A stretch of DNA of 64,000 nucleotides from Longimicrobiales bacterium (GTDB lineage: Bacteria > Gemmatimonadota > Gemmatimonadetes > Longimicrobiales > Gaopeijiaceae): assembly GCA_965218295.1 (NCBI GenBank), contig CBDCKN010000015.1:320001-384000 (forward strand), read 5' to 3'. Position 1 is the first letter of the stretch. The number at the start of each line of letters is the position of its first letter. The notes below the pieces were generated by a model, which was given only the letters and a program-made list of their open reading frames with translations, was not told where the DNA came from and did not search any database. A program made the translations under genes and the position numbers. Shown piece by piece: positions 1 through 44,841 of this stretch.

Positions 1-322
1 TTGCCGTGGCGGAGTAGGCCACCAGGAGAAGCCGGGTGAACTCCTTGGCGAGCTTGTCGTACTTCTCCTCGCTCCCGAAGATGCCGATGGCCTCGACCAC
101 CACGGCGAACATTGGAACGCCAAGTACGAAGGCGGCGAAGAGAAGGTGCACCTGTGCCGCCACCCAGATCGCGACCCGACTCCCGACCAGTGGGAAATCA
201 CCGTACTCGCGGGCAGCGACCGCGTCCTGTGCCCAAGCGACCTCAGGGAAGATGTGGAATGCGAGGCCCATCAGGCCCAGGGCTCCCAGGAGCTTCAAAG
301 CCATCCTAGGGCGCGGGCTCAC
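1..322 (-). CDS. Cytochrome bd-like oxidase subunit I (CydA-like, Nitrospira/anammox-type), 5' part; runs off window
   Basis: Not in ORF track. Manual translation from GTG 322 (GTGA overlap with radical SAM stop): MSPRPRMALKLLGALG...REYGDFPLVGSRVAIWVAAQVHLLFAAFVLGVPMFAVVVEAIG...KYDKLAKEFTRLLLVAYSATA; CydA helix-1 His (QxHxxF) and YDxLAxEF pattern. Confidence 0.75.
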   Translation of the reverse strand, partial: MSPRPRMALKLLGALGLMGLAFHIFPEVAWAQDAVAAREYGDFPLVGSRVAIWVAAQVHLLFAAFVLGVPMFAVVVEAIGIFGSEEKYDKLAKEFTRLLLVAYSATA

Positions 323-1698
323 GCCGATCCTCCCCTGCCGAGGAAGAACGGAAGCTTTTTCGAGAAGTCCACCGGAAGGCTCTTACGGACCTCGGCCATG
401 ACCTCGGTATCTACGCGGGCATATCCCTTCTCGAGGGCAAATTTTTCCACGCGGGCCGTCACTACCCCACGGACGAAGCTCGGCACTCGCTCCAGGCGGG
501 CTCGAGCCTCCGGGGACCAAGACAATTCAGACGTGGCCGGCTGACCGTATGAGACCCGATCCCCCGGACTCACCAGGGGTGCCTCGCCCGTAGGCTCGTA
601 AACGCACGAGTCGTCCGGGCCCATGAAATCGCCGCCGTCGGCATAGGCGCGGGCACGGCAACCGCCGCACACCTCGCGATACTCGCACCGGCCGCAACGC
701 CCCGAGAGGCTTCCGGATCGGAGCTCTGTGAAGACCTCAGACGTCCTCCAGATCGTCTGGAAGCTGTCCGTCATGAGGTCACCGGCCACGACGGGCATGT
801 AGGGGCAGGGAGTCACCTTCCCTTCGGGAGTGATGCGGACGTAGTGCACGCCACATGGGCATCGGGTCTCGTAGTTGAGCAGGGGCGAATCCGGATCCCC
901 CTGCAGCACATGGCGCATGAGCTGTGGCTGGCACTTGGAGCGGACCATCATCCGGCCGCGGTAGGTCCTCTCCAGCTCGACCAGCTCCTTCAAGACGTCG
1001 TCGTTCTCGGACGGCGACATCCCGCGCATGTGCTCGGCTCTCCCGGTGGGAACCACGAAGTAGACGTTGAAGGAGACGGCTCCCGCCGCCGCAGACCAGC
1101 GCGCCAGCTCGGCGATTTCATGACGGTTCCCGGTGGTCACCGTGGTCTGGATGACGAAATCGAGCTCATGGCGGGCACAGCGCTCGACGGCCGCCATGGT
1201 ATCGGCCAGTGCGCCGCCCCCGTGGCGAAAGCGATCGTGATATTCGGGCCGAAGCGAGTCGATACTCACCGCCACGCCCTTGATTCCCGCCGCCATCAAG
1301 GACTCGATGCGTTCATCGGTGAGCCCGATGCCGTTGGTCCCGACGACCACGGTCGCGCCAAGGGACGTGGCTCTCTCGGCGAGGGCCTCCAGATCGTCCC
1401 GAACCAGGGGCTCCCCACCGGTCAGGATCAGCATGGGGTTGGCATTGACCTCGAGGATCTCGCCCATGATCAGGAAGCACTGCTCCGTGGAGAGCTCCTC
1501 GGAGGCAAGGTGCCACGATCCGGCGGAGATGTAGCAGTGCGCGCACTCGAGGTTGCAGCGTTTCGTCAGATTCCAGGCGACGATGTGGGGGACGTAGCCC
1601 TCCCCCTCGCCTCCGAGCCCAGGCTCTTCCCGACCGACCGGGGCCGGCCGTGACAGTGTCGCTGCCGAGGAGCGCTTACGGTCCAGGCCGCGGATCAC
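319..1698 (-). CDS. Radical SAM/SPASM enzyme (AhbC/AhbD/NirJ-like) with C-terminal PCP_red-like domain
   Basis: WNLTKRCNLECAHC (CxxxCxxC), LILTGGEP, SPASM cysteines CPCG...PCPY...CGRCEYREVCGGCRARA...C; tail LSWSPEARARLERVPSFVRG. Start set at GTG 1698 overlapping the upstream stop. Confidence 0.88.
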   Translation of the reverse strand: MIRGLDRKRSSAATLSRPAPVGREEPGLGGEGEGYVPHIVAWNLTKRCNLECAHCYISAGSWHLASEELSTEQCFLIMGEILEVNANPMLILTGGEPLVRDDLEALAERATSLGATVVVGTNGIGLTDERIESLMAAGIKGVAVSIDSLRPEYHDRFRHGGGALADTMAAVERCARHELDFVIQTTVTTGNRHEIAELARWSAAAGAVSFNVYFVVPTGRAEHMRGMSPSENDDVLKELVELERTYRGRMMVRSKCQPQLMRHVLQGDPDSPLLNYETRCPCGVHYVRITPEGKVTPCPYMPVVAGDLMTDSFQTIWRTSEVFTELRSGSLSGRCGRCEYREVCGGCRARAYADGGDFMGPDDSCVYEPTGEAPLVSPGDRVSYGQPATSELSWSPEARARLERVPSFVRGVVTARVEKFALEKGYARVDTEVMAEVRKSLPVDFSKKLPFFLGRGGSA

Positions 1699-3860
1699 GC
1701 TTCGCCGGCCTCTTCGCTCATGAACTGCTCGATGGCGGCCTTGGCGTCGTCGGGCGAGACGGTCTTGAAGTCCACCGGACACTGGTCCGCCGCTTCCGCC
1801 ACATCGCGGATGGGGCAGCGTGTTACGCCGCTGGCCTTGGCCTCCTCGATGAACCTCCGCATCTCGGGGGTGAGGCCGTCGACTCCTTCCGCCTCCGCCC
1901 TGATCTGCTTGGTCTGGAGCTCGCGGAACATGACCAGCATGGTGTCCATGTCGAACTCGTCCGCCTCGATCATGGCCTGCTTGTTCTCGTCCATGACCGG
2001 CGTCGTCACACGCCAGAAGTCGTGCTCACGGGCGAAGCGCTCCACGGTGTTGCGGGCCAAGGGTCGGGCGATGAGAGGAACGAGCCTGAGTCGTTCGAAG
2101 GCCTCCTGGGTCCACTGGACGGGATCCCTGGCCGTTCTCTCGCGGCTCTCGACGTGTCCCGTGTAAGGACACTTCGCCGAGACCATGGGGACCTCCGGCA
2201 GCGGGTCCGCGTCCAGACCCTCCACCACCGTGCGTTTCATGGCCTCTTCGGCCTTCACCTCGGCGAGGGCGAGCTCTTCCGCGGTGCCGATGCCCATGAT
2301 CAGCTGCATATGCGTAGGCAGGAGTTTCTGGATGGCCTCGTCCAGCCGCGCGCTGGTCACCATGGGGAGGCCGTCGGCTCCCAGGGGAGGCACGGCGGCA
2401 CCCGGCTCCGCAGGGGTGTCGGCGCCGGCCGTGTCGTTCGACCCGGCACCGTTCGAGGCGCCGCCACGCTCGGCACCGTTCGAGGCGCTGCCACGCGTCG
2501 GCGTGAGCGGGTCTTCCCGATACGTGCCGTTGGCCCCGGGTCCGTAGTTGTCGAGGACGTACTCCTCCACGGCTTTGCGTGCTATGCCGAGTGCGAAGGG
2601 AGGCACGCGCAGGATTCTGACCTCCGAGTCGGGCGACCACTCCAGGCCCGTTTCGCCGTCCTCTTCGATCCACGGGATGTCGTCCGGACGGACGTCCAGA
2701 GTGCCAACGAGAAGGATGTTACCGTGGGCGAGCCTGCAAAGGTTGTCCGCCTGCGAGCCCATGTCGGTGTCTTCGATACGGTGCCCACCGTGACGTGCCA
2801 GGATCAGGAGGCTGGGCCCGATCTCTTCGATCCACTGGAGGATGCACTGGAACGGCTTTCCGACGAGGATCTGTGTCTCCACCTCCACGTCGGGGAACTC
2901 GTCGGCCATGACCTGAGCACGCTTGAGGTTGGCCTGGGCGAGCTTCAGGAGGCCCTTGTCGATGATGTTGTTGTGGAGCTCCTCCTGTTCTTCGAACTTG
3001 AACACCTTCGAGGCCTGCGCCGAAAGGATGTCCTTGATGTTGCCGAAGACGGCGTGGTGGTACTCGACGTCGAAGGCGGAGCAGACGTGGAGCTTCGCAC
3101 CGAACTCCCGGGCCAGCTCGAGTGCCAGGCGCATGGCCTTGTAGGAGTACGACGAACCGTCGACGCAGACGATCCAATTGCCGTTCTCCAGTGGCCTCTC
3201 GTCTCTGATGAGGAGGGTGTCCTTCTCGACCTCGCGGATTACCCGGGAGACCATCCCGCCCAACTGGGAGTACGGCTGCTTGCCGATGCCGTGGGCTCCG
3301 ATGACCAACAGGTCGTATTGGCGACCACTCGAGCCGGCAAGCTTCTCGTCCTGCTCTTCATCTTCGGCCACGATTCGGCCGTCCTCGCCTATCTTCATAT
3401 CGCTCCGGACCGTCGCGCCCCCGTCGTACTTGTCGGCGATGTTCGGGTCGAAGCCGATGAGGCTTGGCAGTCGTCCGCTGCCACCGTTGGCCTCACGGAT
3501 TACCTCCTCGTAATTGATTCCTTCGAGGAGCTGTCTGGTGAGGAGGACGCCTGCGGAGTCGCAGGCCTTCGCCGTCTGGTCGAGGAAAGAATCTGAGATG
3601 AGCTGGAGGCCCTTCTCGATCAGCTTGTCATGGATCTTCCTCTGTCGCTTGATCTCCTGGGCGGTCTGGAACTGGGCCGGGAGGCCGGTCTCCAGCTGTC
3701 GAAAGCGAACGTCGTGTAGGCGGGCGGCATAGACGTGGTTTCCGGTGATCCGTCCGTCGAAGCGGGAACAGACCTCGATGGCCCGGTCCACGGCCCAATA
3801 GGAATGTTGGGAGTTGTCTACTGGTACGAAGACTTCACGGTACATAAATACCTCGGGCAT
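1695..3860 (-). CDS. Tandem universal stress protein (2x USP) fused to two PCP_red-like domains, with three Cys-Pro motifs
   Basis: USP1 VFVPVDNS...LLVIGAHG...LGG; USP2 IVCVDGS...LARHG...MGS; LEWSPDSEVRILRVPPFALG and VQWTQEAFERLRLVPLIARP; KCPY, RCPI, QCPV. Start may be Met at 3845. Confidence 0.85.
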   Translation of the reverse strand: MPEVFMYREVFVPVDNSQHSYWAVDRAIEVCSRFDGRITGNHVYAARLHDVRFRQLETGLPAQFQTAQEIKRQRKIHDKLIEKGLQLISDSFLDQTAKACDSAGVLLTRQLLEGINYEEVIREANGGSGRLPSLIGFDPNIADKYDGGATVRSDMKIGEDGRIVAEDEEQDEKLAGSSGRQYDLLVIGAHGIGKQPYSQLGGMVSRVIREVEKDTLLIRDERPLENGNWIVCVDGSSYSYKAMRLALELAREFGAKLHVCSAFDVEYHHAVFGNIKDILSAQASKVFKFEEQEELHNNIIDKGLLKLAQANLKRAQVMADEFPDVEVETQILVGKPFQCILQWIEEIGPSLLILARHGGHRIEDTDMGSQADNLCRLAHGNILLVGTLDVRPDDIPWIEEDGETGLEWSPDSEVRILRVPPFALGIARKAVEEYVLDNYGPGANGTYREDPLTPTRGSASNGAERGGASNGAGSNDTAGADTPAEPGAAVPPLGADGLPMVTSARLDEAIQKLLPTHMQLIMGIGTAEELALAEVKAEEAMKRTVVEGLDADPLPEVPMVSAKCPYTGHVESRERTARDPVQWTQEAFERLRLVPLIARPLARNTVERFAREHDFWRVTTPVMDENKQAMIEADEFDMDTMLVMFRELQTKQIRAEAEGVDGLTPEMRRFIEEAKASGVTRCPIRDVAEAADQCPVDFKTVSPDDAKAAIEQFMSEEAGEA
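2444..2497. repeat. 27-bp imperfect tandem duplication inside low-complexity insert of USP protein
   Basis: cggcaccgttcgaggcgccgccacgct / cggcaccgttcgaggcgctgccacgcg (RGSASNGAE/RGGASNGAG). Confidence 0.85.
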
Positions 3861-3965
3861 AGCCCTTTAGCCGAGCGTCATAATGGGGTCGGCAGACCCC
3901 CCGCGACCCGATGTATGGTGACGTGCTTTTCAGTCTCGGGGATATCACGAATCCTACCGGGGGCC

Positions 3966-3995
3966 AGTATACCCGGCCTTTCTGAGACCTGTCAA
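3966..3995 (-). promoter_or_regulatory. Sigma70-type promoter upstream of USP-radical SAM-cydA-like genes
   Basis: Minus strand TTGACA-N18-TATACT preceded by AT-rich ATTTA in intergenic gap. Confidence 0.7.
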
Positions 3996-4083
3996 TAAAT
4001 TCGGACGGGCACTGATACCGTGTGGGAAATCCCCATGTTAATCACGGCATCGGGGCCCTGCACGCACGGTCCAATATCGTCCC

Positions 4084-4554
4084 CTACATGCCCTCCAGGC
4101 CCAACTCCGTCCGAGCCCGGTCCATGACCTCGGGCGTTATCTCGGCTACTGCGTGCTCCTTGGCCCAGTCGACGTAGATCCGCTTCACCATCCCTCGGAC
4201 GAAGCTCGGGACCTTCTGCATCCGCTCGGTCGCCTCGGGGCTCCAGAGGACCGAACCGGCCTGGGAAGCTTGCCCGGCCGGCTGTCTGGGGATGTCCTCC
4301 GACATGCCGAAGGCCTCCTCTCTCCCCCCCTCCAGAGAGCTGCGAACCAACTCGAGGGGTTGAGCGGGCACCTCTCGCCCGCCGATCTTTATCCCCAGGC
4401 TCGACACGAGCTGCGTCTCCATGGGGTTCGTGAGCATGGCCACCTCCCTCCCGCACGAACCGCAGGAGAACACGGCGGCCAGGGTGCCGTCACCAGGAAG
4501 TTGCCGCTCGGCGAAGTCCATGACGTTGTCACACTCGATGCAGAGGAACTTCAT
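4084..4554 (-). CDS. Zn-ribbon/rubredoxin-like (CxxC...CxxC) protein with C-terminal PCP_red-like domain
   Basis: MKFLCIECD...FSCGSCG; tail VLWSPEATERMQKVPSFVRGMVKRIYVDWAKEHAVAEITPEVMDRAR; ATG overlaps Mrp stop (ATGA). Confidence 0.82.
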   Translation of the reverse strand: MKFLCIECDNVMDFAERQLPGDGTLAAVFSCGSCGREVAMLTNPMETQLVSSLGIKIGGREVPAQPLELVRSSLEGGREEAFGMSEDIPRQPAGQASQAGSVLWSPEATERMQKVPSFVRGMVKRIYVDWAKEHAVAEITPEVMDRARTELGLEGM

Positions 4555-5450
4555 CGGGCGCTCCCCTCCATCGTGGCGGCGACCCTGTCTGCGAGGGCGA
4601 GGAGGGCGCGGCTGGAAGCCGCCTCCGGATCCTCCGTTACCAGAGGCGATCCCAGGTCGGTGGAGGCCCCAAGGCGTGCGTCGAAGGGAATGTCGGCCCA
4701 AAGCGGCAGGCCCGACTCCTCGGCGAGGCGTCGTGCCCCGTCCCCGCTGAACAGCTGAGACGTGTGACCGCAGGACGGGCAGACGTGCTCCGTCATATTC
4801 GCCACGAGGGCCACCGTCGAGACTTCCGCCTCGCGCGCCATCCGCACGGACTTCGACACGACAAAGCGGGCCGCCTCCGACGGCGTCGTCACGAGGAGCA
4901 TCTGGTGGAGGCCCGGGACCAGCTCGAGAAGCCGCGCGATCTTGTCCGTTCCGGGCGGTACGTCCACCAGCAGAACGTCCAGGTCACCCCAGGCCACGTC
5001 GCCAAGAAACTCCCTGAGAGCGCCGGTCTCCATGGCGCTCTGCCATATGAACCGACCGGTGGACGGCTCGCGCCAGCGAAGCGGTGCGTCCTCGTCCTGC
5101 TGGAGCAGCTCCATGGACATGACCCGGACGCCGGTTGGGCTCAGGGCCGGTTCCACACCATCTGATCGATCGACGAGGCGGGCACCGGAAACCCCCAGCA
5201 TCCGGCCCAGGGAGGGGCCGTTGAGGTCCGCGTCCGCCGCCCCGACCTCCAGCCCCCGTTGGGCCAGGGCGGCGGCCAGGTTCGCGGTGACGGCGCTCTT
5301 CCCCACCCCACCCTTGCCGCTGGCGACGGCGACCACCGATCCTACCCGGGAGAGGCGGTCCGCCAGTCGCTGGTCCAGCTCGAGCACCTGCTCGAGGAGC
5401 TGCGATCCCGTCTCGTGGGTGACCTCCGTGTACGTCCGGATCTTCCGCAT
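4551..5450 (-). CDS. mrp: Mrp/NBP35/ApbC family P-loop ATPase (Fe-S cluster carrier)
   Basis: VASGKGGVGKS, DADLNGPS, WGDLDVLLVDVPPGT, NM...CPSC. Confidence 0.9.
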   Translation of the reverse strand: MRKIRTYTEVTHETGSQLLEQVLELDQRLADRLSRVGSVVAVASGKGGVGKSAVTANLAAALAQRGLEVGAADADLNGPSLGRMLGVSGARLVDRSDGVEPALSPTGVRVMSMELLQQDEDAPLRWREPSTGRFIWQSAMETGALREFLGDVAWGDLDVLLVDVPPGTDKIARLLELVPGLHQMLLVTTPSEAARFVVSKSVRMAREAEVSTVALVANMTEHVCPSCGHTSQLFSGDGARRLAEESGLPLWADIPFDARLGASTDLGSPLVTEDPEAASSRALLALADRVAATMEGSAR

Positions 5451-5473
5451 GTTCGATTAGCAACAGTCACCGG

Positions 5474-5710
5474 CTACGGGACGAGCTGCGCTCCCTCCTC
5501 GTCCAAGGCCGTCAGAGCGTCGACCGGGCAGGACGAGCAGGCGTCGAGCAGCACCTCCCGGTCCACGGCGGGATCGCCCGTCCTGAACGCAGCGATGCCT
5601 TCGTCGTCGAGCTCGAATACATCCGGGGCGACATCGATGCAGTCGCAGAACCCCACGCACAGGTCCCGCTCGATCCGGATCGTGAGACCCGCGAGAGCAC
5701 GCTCGGAAAT
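5474..5710 (-). CDS. Small single-cluster ferredoxin; start uncertain
   Basis: IERDLCVGFCDCIDVAPDVFELDDEG...ACSSCPVDAL; no ATG/GTG close to the domain start (in-frame ATT at 5710, next ATGs at 5827-5848). Confidence 0.82.
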   Translation of the reverse strand: MSERALAGLTIRIERDLCVGFCDCIDVAPDVFELDDEGIAAFRTGDPAVDREVLLDACSSCPVDALTALDEEGAQLVP

Positions 5711-5807
5711 GTTACTCGATTCCGCTTCAGCGAAGGATGAGATGAGGAATCTGCCCGTCGGGGTGATAAGGGGGTTAACGTGTTCGGAGCCAGCCGGGCG
5801 GGCAAGG

Positions 5808-5846
5808 GGTGAGCAGCCGGTGAGCATCGGGTGACGCGTGAGCATC
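5808..5846. promoter_or_regulatory. Direct repeats GGTGAGCA with 11-bp period in divergent intergenic region (candidate regulator site)
   Basis: ggtgagca 5808, ggtgagca 5819, ggtgacgc 5830, gtgagca 5838. Confidence 0.4.
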
Positions 5847-5994
5847 ACTCATCTCCGAGTGGGTCTCGGGATGCGAACACCCATACCGTGGCGGGGTAGT
5901 CCGTGGCCGTTCCAGAACACCTGGTGCGGGCGCGCGGCTGATTACGGGTGCACGTCCGAGATGGGCGGACACGTTTCGTTACGGAGAGTCGCAC

Positions 5995-6717
5995 ATGAGA
6001 GGTGTGATCCTCGGTCTCACGAGCCTCATCCTGATCGCCGTTCCCGCTTCTGGGCAGGAGAAGAGCTGGTCGGCCAAGACCGAGCTCGGGGCGAATGTCT
6101 TCTTCGGCAACACCAGTCAGTTGGCAATGACCACCTCCCTCGCGGGGACTCTGGAGCGGGGCAGTCTCGGTCTGGCCGGCCGGACCAACTTCGCGTATGG
6201 GGAGGCCAGCACCTCGGAGGGTGACAACTTCGTGAACAAGCGAGCGTGGGACGCGGCTCTGGACGTGAACTTCCATCCGGGGAGCGCCCTGAACGGCTTC
6301 GTGCGGGGGAAGATCGACCTCCGTTATAACGCTGGCGCCGGTGCGCGGTACCAGTTCGGATCCGGCGATGACACGCAGGCCGAGCTGAGCCTCGCCGTGA
6401 TCGGCGAGAAGACGATTCCGCGTGAAGGTGCCGGCGAAGAGGAGGGCGTGGTCGGGAAGTGGTCTGCCCGGTTCAAGCTCGTCAGGGGTGCCGGCGGGGG
6501 TCGGCTACGATTCGAGAGCGACACCGTGTACGAGCCCGAGGCGTCGGACCTCTCCGTCTATACCCTGACATCCCGCAACAGCTTCGCGCTCCGGCTCAAC
6601 GAACGAATCACCGTGCAGCTCTCCTTTGTGGACGCGTTCGATACCGAGGCCGTCGACCGCGGTGCCCGATCCAACAACGACGGTCAGCTATTTTTCAGCT
6701 TGGTCGGCACGTTCTGA
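5995..6717 (+). CDS. DUF481-like outer membrane beta-barrel protein
   Basis: Signal peptide, ELGANVFFGNTS, alternating beta-strand pattern, C-terminal Phe. Confidence 0.75.
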   Translation: MRGVILGLTSLILIAVPASGQEKSWSAKTELGANVFFGNTSQLAMTTSLAGTLERGSLGLAGRTNFAYGEASTSEGDNFVNKRAWDAALDVNFHPGSALNGFVRGKIDLRYNAGAGARYQFGSGDDTQAELSLAVIGEKTIPREGAGEEEGVVGKWSARFKLVRGAGGGRLRFESDTVYEPEASDLSVYTLTSRNSFALRLNERITVQLSFVDAFDTEAVDRGARSNNDGQLFFSLVGTF

Positions 6718-37300: not shown

Positions 37301-37329
37301 TTGACACGGCCCTGAGGCTCCGGTAGCTT
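37301..37329 (+). promoter_or_regulatory. Sigma70-type promoter of act operon
   Basis: TTGACA-N17-TAGCTT about 60 bp before actA. Confidence 0.65.
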
Positions 37330-37389
37330 CCTGCCGTTTCAGACAGACGACTCTTGCTCCCACCCACCCCCATCCGGGCGGCAGGACTT

Positions 37390-37941
37390 ATGACGAAGCG
37401 ATGGATAGTTGCATCGATCGTCGCGCTCGCCACCCTGGGCTCTCTGGCCTTCGCTCGGACCCGGGACAGCAGTGCGGCGCAGGAATCGGAAGCACCGGGC
37501 GGGGCGGCTAGCGCCTTCGTCCAACCAATCGCTTTTCCTCATAACATCCACGCCGGAGTGGACCGGATCGACTGCCAGTATTGTCACTTTTCGGCAGAGC
37601 GATCGGTGGACGCCGGGATCCCCCCAGTCAGAACCTGCATCGGTTGCCATCAGATTATCGGTGGAACCGATGAGCGGCAGCAGGCCGAGATCCAGAAGGT
37701 TCGCGACTACTGGACCAATCAGGAGCCGATTCCGTGGGTGCGGATCTACAAGGTCGCCGACCACGTCCGCTTCCCACACATGAGGCATGTCGCGGCTGGC
37801 GTCGATTGCGCCACCTGCCACGGGGAGGTTCAGGAGATGGGGGTGCTGGAGGAGGTGAACCAGCCTCTTGCCATGGGCTGGTGCGTGACCTGTCACGTCG
37901 AGCGCGGCGTGTCCAGGGACTGCTCAGTTTGCCACTACTGA
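37390..37941 (+). CDS. actA: Alternative complex III pentaheme cytochrome c
   Basis: QPIAFPHNIH; five CxxCH (CQYCH, CIGCH, CATCH, CVTCH, CSVCH). Confidence 0.9.
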   Translation: MTKRWIVASIVALATLGSLAFARTRDSSAAQESEAPGGAASAFVQPIAFPHNIHAGVDRIDCQYCHFSAERSVDAGIPPVRTCIGCHQIIGGTDERQQAEIQKVRDYWTNQEPIPWVRIYKVADHVRFPHMRHVAAGVDCATCHGEVQEMGVLEEVNQPLAMGWCVTCHVERGVSRDCSVCHY

Positions 37942-37957
37942 TTCCAGGACCAATTCA

Positions 37958-40900
37958 ATGAGCGACGGGCTGAAGAGACGCGAGTTCCTGAAGGTTCTGG
38001 GCGTCAGCGGAGCGGGTGCCGGCGTGGTGGGCTGCTCGACAGAGAGCGTCGAGCGCCTGATTCCGTACGTGGTTCCCCCCGAAGAGATCACCCCTGGCGT
38101 CGCCACGTGGTACACGTCGGTGTGTGGCGAATGTGAGGCGGGATGCGGGATTTGGGTCCGCACCATGGAAGGCCGCGTCGTGAAGGTCGAGGGGAATCCC
38201 GACCATCCCGTCTCGGGCGGGGCCCTCTGCTCCAGAGGACACTCGAGCATCCAGGGGCTCTACAATCCCGACCGCTTCACGGGGCCCATGATTCGACAGA
38301 ATGGCCGGCTCCAGCCCATCTCGTGGGACGAGGCGGAGCAGATGCTGGCGGACCGTATTTCGTCAGAGGGACAGCATCTCCTGCTTACAGGATTCGCCGG
38401 GCCCTCGTTGATGGCGCTCTTCGAGGAGTTCGCCGGAGCCACAGGCGGCGGAGTCGTCCGCTACGACACGCTGGCCGAGGCGCCACTTCGCGAGGCCGGC
38501 CGGATCGCCTTCAGGGCCAACGTGGTGCCCTGGTACGATATCGGAGAGGCTCGCCTCCTGGTCTCGTTCGGTGCCGACTTCCTCGAGAGCTGGCTCTCGC
38601 CCGTGCGGGACGCGCGGGGCTTCGCTCGCATGAGCGGGGTGGATGAGCAGGGCAGGAAGGGGCGCTTCGTCTTCATCGGCTCCCGGCTCTCTCTGACGGG
38701 CCAGAACGCCGACGAGTGGCTTCCTATCCAGCCGGGAAGCGAGGCACTCGTGGCGCTCGCCATGGCGAACGTCATCTCCGGAGCCGGCGCTGGCGCCGGC
38801 CCATATAGAGACATCGTCAACGCCTACACCCCCGAGAACGTCGCGGACGCCACCGGTATCTCGGCCGAGAGCATCCGCGAGCTGGCCCTCCGGTTTTCCG
38901 AGGCGGAGCCTAGCCTGGCTCTGGGCCCGGGTGTCGCAGGACAACACCGGAACGCCACGGCCGCTAACCTGGCCGTGACCGTTCTCAATGCCGTAGCCGG
39001 CAACGTGGGCAGGACGGTGCACTACAACACGCCCCAGCTAAACGCCCCCGCCTTCGGCTATGCGGGAGTGCAGCGGATCATGCAGCTGATCGGCCGGGGA
39101 GCCATAGGGACGTTGCTGGTCCACGACAGCAATCCGATGTACTCGCTGCCGGCGTCGTCGGGCTTTCGACAGGCTCTCGAGAGCGTGCCCTTCAAGGTGT
39201 CCTTCGCGTCGGCTCCCGACGAGACGGCGGCCCTTGCCGACCTGATCCTCCCGGACCGGCACTTCCTGGAGTCCTGGGGCGATTCGGCCATCCGACCAGG
39301 CCTTTGGGCGCTGCAGCAGCCGGCCATGCAGCCTGTGCCCCACTTCGACTCCAGACCGACGGGGGACGTGCTCCTCTCGGTCGCCGCACACATGGGGCGG
39401 GACCTCGGCTCGGCCACCCTCTATGACCGGCTGCGCACGCGTTGGCAGGCCGTCGCCGCTTCGGCGGGAGCCACCGACTCTGATGCATTCTGGCACGAGG
39501 CGCTGAAGTCTGGGGTGGTGAATATCGGATCCGGCCTTGCTGGCGTGTCACAAACGCTCCGGCAGCCAGATCGCGCGCTGGTCTTCGATCCGCCGGACTT
39601 CGACGGCCGTGGCGACCTGCACCTGATGGTGTATCCGTCGTCGCGCTTCGGGGATGGAGCCCTGAACTCCAACCGGCCGTGGCTGCACGAGCTGCCCGAT
39701 CCCGTCAGCAAGATCACCTGGCACTCCTGGGTGGAGATGCACCCGAGCCGCGCCGAGTCCATGGGGCTCAAGGACGGTGACCTGGTGATCCTCTCCACGG
39801 ACCACGGCCGCGTGGAAGTGCCGGTTTGGATCTACCCGGGCATCCGCGAGAACGTGGTGGCCGTACCCATGGGAGGGGGCCACGACCGTGCCGGGCGCTT
39901 CAGCGACGGAAACGGCGTGAATCCCCTCGACTTGCTGCCGACCGAAGCCGAAGCGCTGTCGGGCGGTCTGGTTCACTTCGCCACCAAGGTCCTGGTGACG
40001 CCCACCGGCCGGCGCAGGCCCTTGGCCTCCATCGCGGGCTCGGACTCGCAGAGCAATCGTCCCATCACTCCGGCGGTGGCTCTGAGCGCGCTGGCCGGCG
40101 AGGCCGAGCAGGCCGAGGAAGGGGACGCGCACGGTCCGCTGAAGGAGCTGCAGGGGGTCGGTGGCTTCGTTCCGGTCGAGACCGAGGGCCGTCCCGAGGA
40201 TTTCCCTCTGGAGGGAGCCCGGCACGGCGAGTACGGTGATCCGGAGGAACCTCGGTGGGCCATGACCATCGACCTCGACAAGTGCACGGGGTGTAGCGCT
40301 TGCGTGACGGCGTGTCAGTCCGAAAACAACGTGGCATGGGTCGGAGAGAATCAGGTGACCATGGGCCGCGACATGGGGTGGATCCGCCTGGAGCGCTACT
40401 ACGAGGCCGTGGACGCGAGTCACGCCGGACCGTTGGACGTGCGCTTCCTGCCCATGATCTGCCAGCACTGCGGCAACGCGCCGTGCGAGCCCGTCTGCCC
40501 CGTCTTCGCTACGTACCACACGCCGGACGGGATCAACACCCAGGTCTACAACCGCTGCGTCGGAACCCGGTACTGTCTGAACAACTGCCCCTACAAGGTC
40601 CGGGTCTTCAACTGGTACACCTACACGGATGAAGAGCCGGTGCGGGAGGGCCTGGGACACGCTCCGGAGCCTCTCAACTGGGCGTTCAACCCGGATGTGA
40701 CGGTGCGCGAGAACGGCATCATGGAGAAGTGCTCCTTCTGCATCCATCGTATCCGCAATGTGCAGAACCGGGTGGCCGTCGAGGGAAGCACCCTGCGGGA
40801 CGGCGATGTCATCCCGGCCTGTCAACAGAGCTGTCCGGCCGAGGCCATCGTCTTCGGCAACATCCGTGATCCTCGCTCCCGGGTGGCCCAGTCGGTCCAG

Positions 40901-41005
40901 AGCGAGAGGGTCTATCGAGTGCTGGACGAGATGCTCAACACCCAACCAGCGGTGAGCTACTTGAAGAAGGTGACGTTCCACGACGTGGAATCGAGAGAGC
41001 ACTGA
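37958..41005 (+). CDS. actB: Alternative complex III subunit B (molybdopterin-oxidoreductase-like domain fused to Fe-S domain)
   Basis: Tat/lipoprotein leader RREFLK...GC; CTGCSACVTAC, CQHCGNAPCEPVCP, CVGTRYCLNNCP, CSFC...CQQSCP. Confidence 0.92.
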   Translation: MSDGLKRREFLKVLGVSGAGAGVVGCSTESVERLIPYVVPPEEITPGVATWYTSVCGECEAGCGIWVRTMEGRVVKVEGNPDHPVSGGALCSRGHSSIQGLYNPDRFTGPMIRQNGRLQPISWDEAEQMLADRISSEGQHLLLTGFAGPSLMALFEEFAGATGGGVVRYDTLAEAPLREAGRIAFRANVVPWYDIGEARLLVSFGADFLESWLSPVRDARGFARMSGVDEQGRKGRFVFIGSRLSLTGQNADEWLPIQPGSEALVALAMANVISGAGAGAGPYRDIVNAYTPENVADATGISAESIRELALRFSEAEPSLALGPGVAGQHRNATAANLAVTVLNAVAGNVGRTVHYNTPQLNAPAFGYAGVQRIMQLIGRGAIGTLLVHDSNPMYSLPASSGFRQALESVPFKVSFASAPDETAALADLILPDRHFLESWGDSAIRPGLWALQQPAMQPVPHFDSRPTGDVLLSVAAHMGRDLGSATLYDRLRTRWQAVAASAGATDSDAFWHEALKSGVVNIGSGLAGVSQTLRQPDRALVFDPPDFDGRGDLHLMVYPSSRFGDGALNSNRPWLHELPDPVSKITWHSWVEMHPSRAESMGLKDGDLVILSTDHGRVEVPVWIYPGIRENVVAVPMGGGHDRAGRFSDGNGVNPLDLLPTEAEALSGGLVHFATKVLVTPTGRRRPLASIAGSDSQSNRPITPAVALSALAGEAEQAEEGDAHGPLKELQGVGGFVPVETEGRPEDFPLEGARHGEYGDPEEPRWAMTIDLDKCTGCSACVTACQSENNVAWVGENQVTMGRDMGWIRLERYYEAVDASHAGPLDVRFLPMICQHCGNAPCEPVCPVFATYHTPDGINTQVYNRCVGTRYCLNNCPYKVRVFNWYTYTDEEPVREGLGHAPEPLNWAFNPDVTVRENGIMEKCSFCIHRIRNVQNRVAVEGSTLRDGDVIPACQQSCPAEAIVFGNIRDPRSRVAQSVQSERVYRVLDEMLNTQPAVSYLKKVTFHDVESREH

Positions 41006-42396
41006 TGGCCACGGCGACCGAACAGCCGAGGGGCGCGCTACCCCATCCGGATGTCCATCGCCTCGACGAGGTCAACCGGGATGTCCTGAGGGCGCTGGAG
41101 CGACCAGGACTGGGCTGGTGGCTACTCTTCGGCGTGGCCGTCGCCGGACTCGGGGTCTTCTTCGGGTCCTGGGGCATCCAGCTGTGGAAGGGGGTCGGAG
41201 TCAGTGGACTCACGAGTCCGGTGGGCTGGGGTGTCTACATCACCTCCTTCGTGTTCTGGGTGGGGATCGCCCACTCGGGCACACTGATCTCGGCCATCCT
41301 CTTCCTCTTCCGGGCGCCGTGGCGTCAGTCCATCTACCGTACTGCCGAGGCCATGACCGTGTTTGCTGTCATGACCGCGGGGCTGTTCCCACTCATCCAC
41401 ATGGGACGCGTCTGGCATGGATATTGGATGATTCCGTATCCGAACAGCCGCTTCCTGTGGCCCAACTTCCGCTCGCCCCTGGTCTGGGACGTCTTCGCCG
41501 TGACCACGTACTTCACGGTCTCGGCGGTCTTCTTCTACCTGGGGACGATACCCGACCTGTCCGCCGCCCGGGATGCGGCGACGGGTGTGAGGAAGAAGCT
41601 CTACCAGGTCATATCCCTGGGGTGGCGCGGCACGGACCGTGAATGGCACCACTTCGGCAAGGCATACATCTTTCTGGCCGCCCTGGCCACGCCCCTGGTC
41701 CTGTCCGTCCACTCCGTGGTTTCCTGGGACTTCGCCGTGGCGATCGTGCCGGGGTGGCACACCACCATCTTCGCTCCCTATTTCGTCGCAGGCGCCATCT
41801 TCTCGGGCGTCGCCTTGGTGATCACCCTCACGGTTCCCCTCAGGAAGGTCTTCGGCCTCGAGGCGTACCTCACGACCAAGCACTACGACGCCATGGCGAA
41901 GCTCTGCCTGTTCACGTCGATGATCGTGCTCTACGCCTACCTCGCCGAGTCCTTCATGGCGTGGTACAGCGGTGAGGAAGTGGAGCGGGCGGCCGCCTGG
42001 GCCAGATTCTTCGGTCACTACTGGTGGGCCGCCTGGATCATGTTGGTGTGCAACGGGATGGTGCCCGTCATGCTCTGGTTCAAGCGCGTGAGGTACTCGA
42101 TACCCGCCCTGTTCGCGATTTCGATCTTCATCAACATCGGAATGTGGTTCGAGCGCTATGTGATCATCGTCACGGGGCTCCACCACGAGTACGAGCCCTT
42201 CGCGTGGGGCGTCTATAGACCCTCGCTCGTCGAGATGGGGATCGGGTTGGGGAGCTTCGCCTGGTTCGGCTTCTGGTTCCTCCTCTTCACGCGGTTGCTA
42301 CCGCCAGTGGCCATCGCCGAGCTGAAGGAGGTGCTGCCCACGCCCATGCGTAGTGCCGGACTGGCTCACGCTGGTGGGGAAGGGGGTGAGCCATGA
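41005..42396 (+). CDS. actC: Alternative complex III subunit C (NrfD/PsrC family)
   Basis: FVFWVGIAHSGTLISAIL, NFRSPLVWDV, SVHSVVSWDFA, GWHTTIFAPYF. Confidence 0.93.
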   Translation: MATATEQPRGALPHPDVHRLDEVNRDVLRALERPGLGWWLLFGVAVAGLGVFFGSWGIQLWKGVGVSGLTSPVGWGVYITSFVFWVGIAHSGTLISAILFLFRAPWRQSIYRTAEAMTVFAVMTAGLFPLIHMGRVWHGYWMIPYPNSRFLWPNFRSPLVWDVFAVTTYFTVSAVFFYLGTIPDLSAARDAATGVRKKLYQVISLGWRGTDREWHHFGKAYIFLAALATPLVLSVHSVVSWDFAVAIVPGWHTTIFAPYFVAGAIFSGVALVITLTVPLRKVFGLEAYLTTKHYDAMAKLCLFTSMIVLYAYLAESFMAWYSGEEVERAAAWARFFGHYWWAAWIMLVCNGMVPVMLWFKRVRYSIPALFAISIFINIGMWFERYVIIVTGLHHEYEPFAWGVYRPSLVEMGIGLGSFAWFGFWFLLFTRLLPPVAIAELKEVLPTPMRSAGLAHAGGEGGEP

Positions 42397-42923
42397 GCGC
42401 CACGACCGGCCTTCTGGCCTCTTACGAGTACGTGGACTCCGTGGTGAACGCCATCGAGAAGCTGAGGGCGTCGGGGCTCAAGAAGATCACCGCCTACATG
42501 CCCTATCCCGACCTTCACATCGAGGCGGCTCTCGGTTACGACCAGAGCCCCGTGCGGGTCTGGACGCTCGCCGGAGGACTCTGCGGCGCGGCAGGAGGAT
42601 TCGCCCTCACGTCGTTCACGTCCATGGATTGGCCACTCGTCACGGGTGGCAAGCCGATCCTCTCCATACCGGCGTACATTATCATCGCATTCGAGATGGC
42701 GGTGCTGTTCGGAGTTCTGGCCACCGTGATCGGCCTCTTCATCAACAGCCGTCTTCCTTACGTGAAGCCCATGGTGGTCTACGATCCGGAGTTCAGCGCC
42801 GGCCGATTCGGTGTCTATGTGACCGCCCCTCCGGACCGATTGGACGAGGCCCGCCGAATACTGCAGGAGCAGGATCCGGTCGAGCTGCGGGAAGATCCCG
42901 CGGGGGTGGCCCATGCTTCGTAA
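42393..42923 (+). CDS. actD: Alternative complex III subunit D (DUF3341)
   Basis: YMPYP, WPLVTGGKP, IIAFEMAVL, operon position. Confidence 0.88.
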   Translation: MSATTGLLASYEYVDSVVNAIEKLRASGLKKITAYMPYPDLHIEAALGYDQSPVRVWTLAGGLCGAAGGFALTSFTSMDWPLVTGGKPILSIPAYIIIAFEMAVLFGVLATVIGLFINSRLPYVKPMVVYDPEFSAGRFGVYVTAPPDRLDEARRILQEQDPVELREDPAGVAHAS

Positions 42924-43533
42924 AGCGCGCCTCAGCGTGGTTCTGGCTCTGCTCGCGGCGACGAGCGCCTGCACGCCTCTCGACAACGTCATGGCGAGCA
43001 TCTTCGGTCGCCACATGCGGGACTCCAGATCCTTCGACCCCTACGAGAACACGCTCGCTCCTCCGCCGAACAGCGTGCCCTTCGCGGCCGGCAACATTAC
43101 TCCCGGGCCGGGCCAGCTGAATACCGGCCAGCCCGTGAGGGGCTTCAACGCCCCGCCCTTCACCCAGGCGGATCTCTTCCAGCCCGTGGTGCAAGCGCTG
43201 CCCAATCCGGTCGCGCCCGACGAGGCCTCGCTTGCCCGTGGTGAGGTGTTGTTCAATCGCATCTGCGCCGTGTGCCACGGCGCGGCCGGTGTCGGCGCCC
43301 AGGCCAACATCATCGAGAAGTACCCGCTCCTGATGGCGTTCAACCTGTCCGGACCCGTAGTGGCGGGCTACAGCGACGGGTACATCTATGGGATCATGCG
43401 CGTGGGCCGCGGCCTCATGCCGCCGTATGGACACCAGATCAGCCACTTCGATCGCTGGAACATCGTGAACTACGTCCGTGTGTTGCAGCGTCAGGCCGGA
43501 AACGAGCCGGCCGTGGCCGGGGGGGAGGACTAG
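42913..43533 (+). CDS. actE: Alternative complex III monoheme cytochrome c lipoprotein
   Basis: Lipobox TSAC, CAVCHG, GRGLMPPY, DRWNIVNYVR. Confidence 0.88.
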   Translation: MLRKARLSVVLALLAATSACTPLDNVMASIFGRHMRDSRSFDPYENTLAPPPNSVPFAAGNITPGPGQLNTGQPVRGFNAPPFTQADLFQPVVQALPNPVAPDEASLARGEVLFNRICAVCHGAAGVGAQANIIEKYPLLMAFNLSGPVVAGYSDGYIYGIMRVGRGLMPPYGHQISHFDRWNIVNYVRVLQRQAGNEPAVAGGED

Positions 43534-43536
43534 GCC

Positions 43537-44841
43537 ATGAGCCACATCCACGTCCCCTCCGAGATTCCGGTCCGCTATCTGCCTCGCTCCAAGAACGCGG
43601 ACATGCTCTTCGTGGGCATGTTCGTCGTGGGGTTGGCGGGCTTCATTTTCGCCCTGGGCAACGACGCCGACCGGGCCTGGCAGTCCTACGTCTCCAATTG
43701 GCTCTTCTTCACGAACGTGGCCATGGGGGCGATGCTCTTCACCGTGGCGACCTGGATAACCAAGTCGAAGTGGAACTGGTCGGTCCGGCGGGTGAGCCTC
43801 TCCTTCGTGGCGTTCCTTCCCATCTCCTTCGTCATGCTTCTGCCCATGCTGGGGCTCGGGGAGTCGTTCTTCCCCTGGATTGCGGAGATGGCCCACGATC
43901 CCATCCTCCAGAAGAAGGCGGCATACCTCAACATGCCGTTCCTGGTGACGCGGAACGTGGTGGGGGTGGTGGTCCTCTTCGGGGCTTCGCTGTACTTCGC
44001 CTACATGGCGCTCCGCCCCGACATGGGACTGGCCAAGGACAACGGTGACTCCGATCCGGGCCGAGCGGCTTGGCGGGAGCGTCTCACGCAGGGCTGGAGG
44101 GGCCAGGAGGCCGAGGAGGTCCACTCCTATCGGCGCATGACCAAGCTCGGTCCGGCCTTCGTGATTCTCTACGTCGTGGTGATGAGCATCCTCGCGTACG
44201 ACTGGGTCATGTCCCTCGAGCCGCACTGGTTCTCCACCATGATGGGCCCGTGGTTCTTCATGGGCGCGTTCTGGAGTGGCATGGCCGCGACCGCCTGCTT
44301 GGTCACGCTGCTCAAGCGGGACCAACGGTTCGACAAGGCCATGGGGCGGCAGCAGCTCCACGACCTCGGAAAACTGACCTTCGCCTTCTCCATCTTCTGG
44401 GCCTATCTGTTCTTCGCCCAATACCTGGTGATCTGGTACGGGAAGCTTCCGTGGGAGCAGGCCTGGATCATCCACCGGGCCGAGGAGCCCTGGGGACGGC
44501 TGTCGGCCATGGTAGTCGTGATGTGCTTCGTCGTGCCCTTCGCGTTTCTCATGGGGCGGAAGCCCAAGATGAATCCGGCGTTCTTGCGGACCGTCACGTT
44601 CGTCATCTTGGGGGGTCTCTGGCTCGAGAAGCATCTCATGGTGGCACCGTCCATCCGGGACCACGGCACGCCTCCCATCGGAGCGACCGAATTCCTGATC
44701 GCGCTCATGTTCCTCGGGCTGTTTCTCTACGCAGTGCGGTGGTTCCTCTCGACCTTCCCGGTGATCCAGGTCTGGCAGCCCATGGTGGATCCGGAGACTC
44801 TCGAGGTCGAGGTCCTGGGGGAGGGCGCATCGGTGGGTTGA
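43537..44841 (+). CDS. actF: Alternative complex III subunit F
   Basis: Polytopic membrane protein; DWVMSLEPHWFST, HDLGKL, QYLVIWYG. Confidence 0.9.
   Translation: MSHIHVPSEIPVRYLPRSKNADMLFVGMFVVGLAGFIFALGNDADRAWQSYVSNWLFFTNVAMGAMLFTVATWITKSKWNWSVRRVSLSFVAFLPISFVMLLPMLGLGESFFPWIAEMAHDPILQKKAAYLNMPFLVTRNVVGVVVLFGASLYFAYMALRPDMGLAKDNGDSDPGRAAWRERLTQGWRGQEAEEVHSYRRMTKLGPAFVILYVVVMSILAYDWVMSLEPHWFSTMMGPWFFMGAFWSGMAATACLVTLLKRDQRFDKAMGRQQLHDLGKLTFAFSIFWAYLFFAQYLVIWYGKLPWEQAWIIHRAEEPWGRLSAMVVVMCFVVPFAFLMGRKPKMNPAFLRTVTFVILGGLWLEKHLMVAPSIRDHGTPPIGATEFLIALMFLGLFLYAVRWFLSTFPVIQVWQPMVDPETLEVEVLGEGASVG

Follow-up and report, generated by a model that had tools for sequence, protein, structure and literature searches.

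At the start of a 64,000-nucleotide stretch of Longimicrobiales DNA (assembly GCA_965218295.1, contig CBDCKN010000015.1, positions 320,001 to 384,000; hereafter the window), six genes are encoded on the minus strand, which in reading order specify a ferredoxin, an Mrp ATPase, a CxxC-ribbon protein, a tandem universal stress protein (USP), a radical S-adenosylmethionine (SAM)/SPASM enzyme and a subunit resembling CydA of cytochrome bd (bd-like). We describe here the helper genes that precede the bd-like gene and their relation to the respiratory complex to which it belongs. The host genome is a member of Gemmatimonadota (3.57 Mb, 90.7% complete), whose nearest named relatives are Longimicrobiales metagenome-assembled genomes (MAGs). 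A first-pass annotation of the letters had reported that the six genes are co-oriented, with no strand given, and joined by three four-base overlaps; both observations are correct, the overlaps being ATGA at 4551-4554, GTGA at 1695-1698 and GTGA at 319-322. The single-cluster ferredoxin (Fer4_13/Fer4_15 by Pfam) is annotated at 5474..5848; its true start is uncertain, and the start at 5848 is probably too far upstream, because homology with relatives spans only about 5474-5710, the conserved part. The Mrp/ApbC-family P-loop ATPase with a C-terminal CxxC follows at 4551..5450, and the CxxC...CxxC ribbon protein with a C-terminal PCP_red domain at 4084..4554. The USP gene (1695..3845) encodes two USP domains (nt 3207-3845 and 2700-3179) and two PCP_red domains, and the radical SAM/SPASM gene (319..1698) ends in a further PCP_red domain. 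Only the 5' end of the gene for the 597-aa bd-like subunit (1..322) is contained in the window, the rest lying beyond it.

The repeated motif had been likened to PCP_red, and indeed Pfam PF08369 exceeds its 32.5-bit cut-off in three proteins at the expected places, namely the radical SAM enzyme (52.2 bits, nt 385-519), the USP (50.5 bits, nt 1980-2114) and the CxxC-ribbon protein (45.4 bits, nt 4111-4245). The further claim that the USP carries the motif twice stands for the second copy by Pfam, and for the first copy (nt 2322-2639) by our own profile and alignment, this fourth copy being unreported by Pfam in this genome. A low-complexity insert at about nt 2370-2546 interrupts it. Our profile, which started from the three copies in the window and went through one round on the fetched loci, matches its first 31 positions at USP residues 403-433 (E 4e-12, a value that is partly circular); the first two helices are found by the profile, and the third aligns beyond the insert. 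The insert stretch measures 31-92 aa in 22 Gemmatimonadota rows of the alignment versus 8 aa in 25 rows of a second lineage described below, and most relatives have four PF08369 matches per genome. Judged from these alignments, the fourth copy is probably real but split. The cluster's three matches are the only PF08369 matches in the 90.7% complete host genome, and hence no BchB was found. The same three proteins bear PCP_red in both lineages, and the Mrp ATPase and the ferredoxin are without it. By sequence, the window's domains match PDB chains 2KRU and 2YNM, which are PCP_red of BchB/ChlB in dark-operative protochlorophyllide reductase (DPOR), and the stand-alone Asr4154 (2L09); in contrast to DPOR, four copies occur here on three non-photosynthetic proteins. 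The accessible parts of PMC12022308 and PMC13474568 give PCP_red no stated role, and no PCP_red occurrence was among the literature matches listed.

Beyond the window, the bd-like gene is followed by genes for a dihaem cytochrome c, a monohaem cytochrome c, a cyt c-EB_dh, a carboxypeptidase-regulatory-like protein and CoxB/A/C. The bd-like subunit matches CydA (PF01654) only at positions 2-248 of 418, and the operon has no CydB. Its His59 aligns with His21, and its Glu146 with Glu108, of Geobacillus CydA (5DOQ), and the column of the Geobacillus channel residue Glu101 is occupied by an invariant tyrosine, Tyr139, in 25/25 bd-like rows. A crude hydropathy scan gave 11 segments, the OR-N criterion being 14 membrane helices, and a PDB sequence search returned only canonical CydA chains (five sequences). 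By its CydA-like first helices, haem-ligand His, accompanying cytochromes c and missing CydB, the subunit is assigned from its sequence to the OR-N family of the cytochrome bd superfamily, as presented in the accessible text of Murali et al. (bioRxiv 10.1101/2021.01.16.426971). Similar layouts appear, in the portions available, for TO_1 of Candidatus Manganitrophus (bioRxiv 10.1101/2021.11.15.468770) and for the bd-like_3/alt_NxrC_2 cluster of Nitrospira moscoviensis (PMC6606698), which share CydA-like N-terminal helices only, no CydB, and two adjoining cytochromes c with cyt c-EB_dh. Helpers and Gemmatimonadota go unmentioned in the available parts of these three papers, whereas here helper genes and an A-type oxidase adjoin the complex, and the genome lacks nitrite oxidoreductase (NXR). 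The composition, function and oxygen reductase activity of OR-N are called unconfirmed in the accessible part of PMC10839748. A link to NXR/Nar, entertained in the first-pass annotation, falls away: no NXR/Nar alpha subunit was found in the host, where the alternative complex III (ACIII) gene of the window alone gave matches, and these were weak (E 1e-4), and the complex here is therefore not an NXR anchor.

The helper genes and the bd-like gene travel together. Among 486 genome loci with relatives of the USP, we examined the best 80, all from Gemmatimonadota; the radical SAM gene follows the USP gene in 80/80 and the bd-like gene follows in 71/80. Eight of the other nine loci end first, and the ninth, L004, is a genuine exception: its enzyme frame is shortened and no bd-like gene follows. 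Mrp is present in 66/80 of these loci and CoxA in 58/80. Co-occurrence was counted in 151 Gemmatimonadota genomes, the host included, which are kin and not independent, hence no P value is given. The bd-like gene occurs in 43/151, and all 43 have PF08369 matches. Five other genomes have such matches, comprising a divergent cluster at a contig end in G048 (contig of 9.6 kb), BchB in G099, a short BchB-like frame in G087, and two unchecked cases. G048 led to a second lineage, whose USP is only 35% identical and of which the best 80 of 555 loci, mostly on short contigs, were analysed. The order is reversed there, with the bd-like gene, cytochromes and USP followed by Mrp, the CxxC protein and the enzyme; cyt c-EB_dh lies directly upstream of USP in 65/80 loci, and the bd-like gene, Mrp and the enzyme are present in 26, 22 and 15, respectively. 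The link between helpers and complex thus survives rearrangement in the second lineage, whose Atlas clusters point, as leads only, to Acidobacteriota, Nitrospirota and Methanobacteriota. One second-lineage locus has a GNAT-like gene between USP and Mrp (L169, 12095-12979, +), and a similar frame is present on L085. A second bd-like complex, about 50% identical, is encoded on L088 (1-13209), on L089 and in the upstream part of L033, beside outer-membrane-like genes and an 850-aa cytochrome.

These 80 loci, the 151 genomes and the second lineage bear out the conserved neighbourhood and the co-occurrence with a bd-like complex that had been anticipated, and we regard a functional tie of the module to that complex as very probable. 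CoxA is frequent in the Gemmatimonadota loci and Cox genes flank the second-lineage cluster as well, which would also be expected if the helpers served the operon's A-type cytochrome c oxidase or were simply co-located passengers. This we consider highly improbable: the presence of the helpers tracks the bd-like gene, the second-lineage USP directly follows the bd-like complex whereas the Cox genes vary in side and strand, and CtaA- and CtaB-like genes lie elsewhere in the host genome.

The radical SAM enzyme had been placed near AhbD, AhbC and NirJ, and the NCBIfam ranking, the cysteine motif and a tree all agree with that placement. Its top matches are NirJ2, AhbD and TIGR04053, every one below its cut-off. 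On AhbD (TIGR04545), whose cut-off is 500, the window enzyme scores 266.7 bits and a member of the second lineage 287.6, and TIGR04053, NirJ2 (TIGR04055), NirJ and AhbC give 249, 278, 166 and 130 against 395, 500, 515 and 650; the phylum's AhbD-like proteins, to which the enzyme is about 31% identical, score 438-459 on TIGR04545, also under the cut-off. Peptide maturase models reach about half the score of the nearest tetrapyrrole families. The AhbD motif, given in the accessible part of PMC10452713 as CX3CX2C plus the eight-Cys SPASM motif CX20-33CX17CX36-37CX2CX5CX2CX17-35C, is present with spacings of 23, 17, 36, 2, 5, 2 and 17, and CX3CX2C and all eight Cys are invariant in 42/42 rows. In a 31-row tree, the PCP_red-bearing enzymes from the two lineages cluster in a single branch (98/97), the AhbD-like and TIGR04053 rows group apart (91/88), and AhbC-like rows fall outside; the tree was midpoint-rooted, its references are uncharacterised Gemmatimonadota proteins labelled by hidden Markov models (five labels checked), and one AhbC locus contributed no row. 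Since the PCP_red-bearing enzymes separate from the AhbD/TIGR04053 and AhbC rows, the enzyme is classed as a third branch of the tetrapyrrole-acting AhbD clan. It thus shares with AhbD, TIGR04053 and NirJ2 both the clan and CX3CX2C with the eight-Cys SPASM motif, and differs from them in lying under every cut-off, in its own branch, in its C-terminal PCP_red, in a host without an AhbA/B-type match, and in being kept where haem synthesis was not found.

The other helper proteins could prepare such an enzyme. The Mrp ATPase (PF10609, 235.9 bits) has the deviant Walker A GKGGVGKS and the C-terminal CxxC of Mrp/ApbC/NUBPL carriers in at least 90% of 36 rows, whereas it lies below the NCBIfam MrpORP and ApbC cut-offs, has a family-specific N-terminal helix and has a predicted dedicated four-Cys partner. 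A second Mrp of the host is encoded on contig C17, and strict matches to the cluster Mrp occur in 32/151 genomes, every one bearing the bd-like gene; it is a dedicated paralogue and, by its family membership, a predicted Fe-S carrier. The CxxC-ribbon protein, with its four Cys invariant in 41/41 rows, is encoded directly after Mrp in both lineages, with overlapping genes here. When two Mrp chains were modelled together with the CxxC protein, ATP and Mg, the score of the complex was 0.69, versus 0.00 for the best of three controls; the mark for this score is reached by 116/157 solved complexes and 2/215 mismatched pairs, counts that apply only roughly here. Contact agreement between runs was at least 87%, and the partner pLDDT at least 70. 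In the model, the partner's residues 1-85 form the interface and PCP_red (104-148) hangs free; Mrp Tyr7 (35/36 rows) contacts Leu41 and Asn43 of the partner (41/41 rows), and the lowest-error contacts use partner residues 66-74, which are poorly conserved. An Mrp dimer is thus predicted to bind the CxxC-ribbon protein through residues 1-85, and we know of no solved complex like it, as checked by PDB sequence searches with the CxxC protein. The earlier expectation of physical links between cluster members is upheld in the model for Mrp and CxxC, and not for a link through PCP_red, since the interface lies outside that domain. The ferredoxin, present in 56/80 Gemmatimonadota loci and without a match in the 80 second-lineage loci, is on sequence the likely electron donor to the radical SAM enzyme.

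The USP matches PF00582 in two stretches (92.3 bits), and a fold search returned solely tandem USPs and USP-like domains, the best being TTHA0350, Rv2623 and UspE. Each USP domain contains an inserted helical hairpin with one His per helix (H44/H72 and H263/H291), and H72, H263 and H291 are present in 47/47 rows and H44 in 46/47, making the protein a candidate haem or metal carrier via these His hairpins. No USP acting as a haem carrier was among the literature matches listed. A related frame, the second-lineage USP on L085 (8129-9643, -) of G048, carries one more CxxC...CxxC ribbon and what appears to be a third, weak repeat resembling PCP_red; this contig may be foreign to the MAG. USPs are mostly regulators, and this one is the first gene behind a candidate internal promoter (see below), so the set could be a redox-, oxygen- or metal-sensing control module of the respiratory operon, with USP and CxxC sensors joined by PCP_red and the radical SAM protein as a haem-binding non-catalyst. 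The USP ATP-binding motif is G-2x-G-9x-G(S/T); the second-lineage USP P0250 keeps G-2x-G-9x-GS in its first domain, as sensing would suggest, whereas the window USP has no exact copy. Furthermore, Pfam and NCBIfam found no DNA-binding or kinase domain in the five proteins, and CxxxCxxC and all SPASM Cys are invariant, as in an active enzyme. We therefore judge a sensing module quite improbable.

The haem-synthesis genes of the hosts bear on what the enzyme could act upon. The window's genome has HemE, HemH and ChdC, so that haem b is made without the radical SAM enzyme. AhbA/B-type proteins (PF17805) gave no match in the host, which makes siroheme-route intermediates, put forward earlier as assay substrates, unlikely. 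ChdC was found in 38/43 bd-like genomes versus 25/108 others and HemE in 36/43 versus 42/108 (counted by hand from lists, with G093 and G053 counted only among others), and because ChdC is so widely present, replacement of ChdC by the enzyme was rejected; HemY was judged only from its N-terminal motif. A second AhbD/TIGR04053-like enzyme is present in 10/43 bd-like genomes, so that with ChdC in 38/43 the making of haem b is provided for by other enzymes. In five genomes (G071, G089, G105, G131 and G145), HemB, HemC, HemE, HemH and ChdC were not found (0/5 each); they are 94-97% complete, span four genera, including two genomes of one genus, and keep the enzyme, the PCP_red set and Mrp. If they are true haem auxotrophs, no coproheme is available, and the substrate would have to be imported haem b or the protein itself. 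Retention of the module in these genomes argues against a plain coproheme decarboxylase, and together with the second AhbD/TIGR04053-like enzyme in 10/43 it leads us to prefer a reaction downstream of haem b; the chief reservation concerns gaps in the assemblies. In one relative (G042), a ChdC/HemQ-like domain is fused to a Rieske-type ferredoxin at the operon end (L171, 9065-10141, +), and ChdC frames about 360 aa long are found repeatedly in family f4.

A protein substrate is conceivable, in that the enzyme might modify the bd-like protein itself, for example by a cross-link at or near the haem site, with the other genes as chaperones. Many SPASM enzymes act on proteins or peptides, Tyr139 is invariant at the column of CydA Glu101, and such a reaction needs no haem precursor, which fits the five genomes. 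The nearest families act on tetrapyrroles, though, with the peptide maturase models far behind, and the target would lie within the membrane, so that we give this possibility little credence.

Starting from the observed domain content, linkage, co-occurrence, cysteine motif and tree position, we propose that the helper genes are a dedicated cofactor-finishing system of the bd-like (OR-N-type) complex, probably acting on haem b, a reading to which we assign an even chance as a whole. Cofactor maturation as the role of the module is reasonably probable, and a product other than haem b somewhat less than an even prospect. The Mrp-CxxC pair would load three [4Fe-4S] clusters into the radical SAM enzyme, and the ferredoxin would donate the electron for SAM cleavage. 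By abstracting hydrogen from a haem side chain, in the manner of the AhbD/AhbC/NirJ clan, the enzyme would turn completed haem b into a special haem, which the His-hairpin USP would then carry to the bd-like subunit; the PCP_red domains on the enzyme, the carrier and the Mrp adaptor may serve as hand-off modules. The first-pass annotation had suggested that the module makes or modifies a haem for the downstream CydA-like complex; linkage and co-occurrence support the connection to the complex, and the haem product is what we infer.

Several observations weigh against this proposal. Two of the three genomes that hold a second bd-like complex were examined, and the 18 kb surrounding it there are free of helpers; in the available part of the Nitrospira moscoviensis study, the genes seen beside bd-like_3 differ from these helpers. 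The USP structure was predicted with modest confidence (mean pLDDT 63.9, hairpin blocks about 44-80), and the conserved His pairs may bind metal or lie in an interface. The modelled Mrp-CxxC interface names no PCP_red residue. BchL docks on BchB, and by analogy PCP_red could be a docking tag for Mrp, which the model leaves unsupported, but not refuted, as unnamed residues are uncertain. The wider claim of a shared docking tag is also weakened by the absence of PCP_red from Mrp and the ferredoxin, and we hold to a shared docking module only tentatively. The five genomes without haem genes are fragmented MAGs (80-230 contigs), in which hem genes may cluster on one lost contig. Finally, ChdC is present in 36/36 HemE-positive bd-like genomes versus 15/42 other HemE genomes (kin that are not independent), and the operon of some relatives ends with CtaB, ChdC, HemE and HemH, a pattern that fits coproheme as the substrate.

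This last pattern is what would be seen if the enzyme were an oxygen- and peroxide-independent haem b synthase, that is, an AhbD isoenzyme backing up ChdC at low oxygen, with the USP delivering plain haem b to a high-affinity oxidase: coproheme is made in these hosts, and the enzyme has the full eight-Cys AhbD motif, with AhbD and NirJ2 among its top NCBIfam matches. Nevertheless, its AhbD scores are barely above half the cut-off, its identity to AhbD-like proteins is low and its branch separate, and it is kept in the five genomes without detectable haem synthesis and beside TIGR04053-like paralogues in 10/43. We consider an AhbD isoenzyme unlikely, and retain a dedicated finishing system acting on haem b as our preferred reading.

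The cluster is probably two transcription units, ferredoxin-Mrp-CxxC and USP-enzyme-oxidase, because a candidate internal promoter precedes the USP gene and genes are inserted there in relatives. The promoter candidate is of sigma-70 type (TTGACA-18-TATACT, 3966..3995, minus strand, 11/12 matches) and lies between the CxxC and USP genes (nt 3995-3966; one found, 0.5 expected); similar hexamers were seen by eye 5' of USP in several relatives, e.g. L044, L053 and L073. Many relatives have extra genes between CxxC and USP, frequently a pair encoding an ABC transporter, with the permease in 28 loci, as in L022 (7447-9104, +) with an ABC ATPase and an ABC-2-like permease; others have a 128-aa membrane protein without an NCBIfam family. 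The RNA data, from four runs of a single study, consist of short, near-identical contigs interspersed with pieces from other organisms, and say nothing on level, strand or co-transcription. Plasmid carriage was discarded, since all nine matching records were generic USP matches below 28%.

Other neighbouring genes were also recorded. A divergent gene for a DUF481 outer-membrane protein (window 5995-6717, +) adjoins the ferredoxin gene and lies beside the cluster in 7/80 related loci. An ACIII-like run at window 37327-44838 (+) encodes, by sequence features, a pentahaem cytochrome, a 1038-aa molybdopterin-like subunit, membrane subunits and a monohaem cytochrome, and in loci of the second lineage the bd-like gene has ACIII-like genes upstream of it. 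A second, convergent caa3-type oxidase operon some 14 kb outside the window encodes CoxB-cyt c, CoxA, CoxC and CoxD (L001 1105-5108, +; G000:C15:301505-305508), with a CtaG gene between the two oxidase operons. A 320-aa membrane protein without a Pfam or NCBIfam match is encoded after the Cox genes (L001 9127-10089, -).

All the parts can be placed in known families, the membrane complex is of a kind already described, and we found no paper on the helper set in the open-access literature. Dedicated haem-maturation cassettes are familiar from NirJ and its partners for haem d1 and from CtaA/CtaB for haem a. The present set resembles them in that a tetrapyrrole-type enzyme is encoded with the respiratory enzyme it presumably serves, and differs in its His-hairpin USP, its private Mrp with a CxxC adaptor, and the shared PCP_red. 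A bolder version, which we regard as rather doubtful, is that the OR-N complexes, proposed as terminal oxidases in Nitrospira, Nitrospina and manganese-oxidising bacteria, contain a haem as yet undescribed, which this third AhbD-clan branch forms from haem b, with the USP as a haem chaperone and PCP_red as a hand-off tag common to tetrapyrrole enzymes. Major nitrite and manganese oxidisers are presumed to reduce oxygen with OR-N complexes, and a defined helper set suggests co-expression partners for an active OR-N enzyme and what to seek when its haems are extracted. A branch of radical SAM enzymes, a His-hairpin USP family and PCP_red outside photosynthesis also gain a testable role from it. 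As the module is kept where haem-synthesis genes were not found, its product may be a haem type not yet described.

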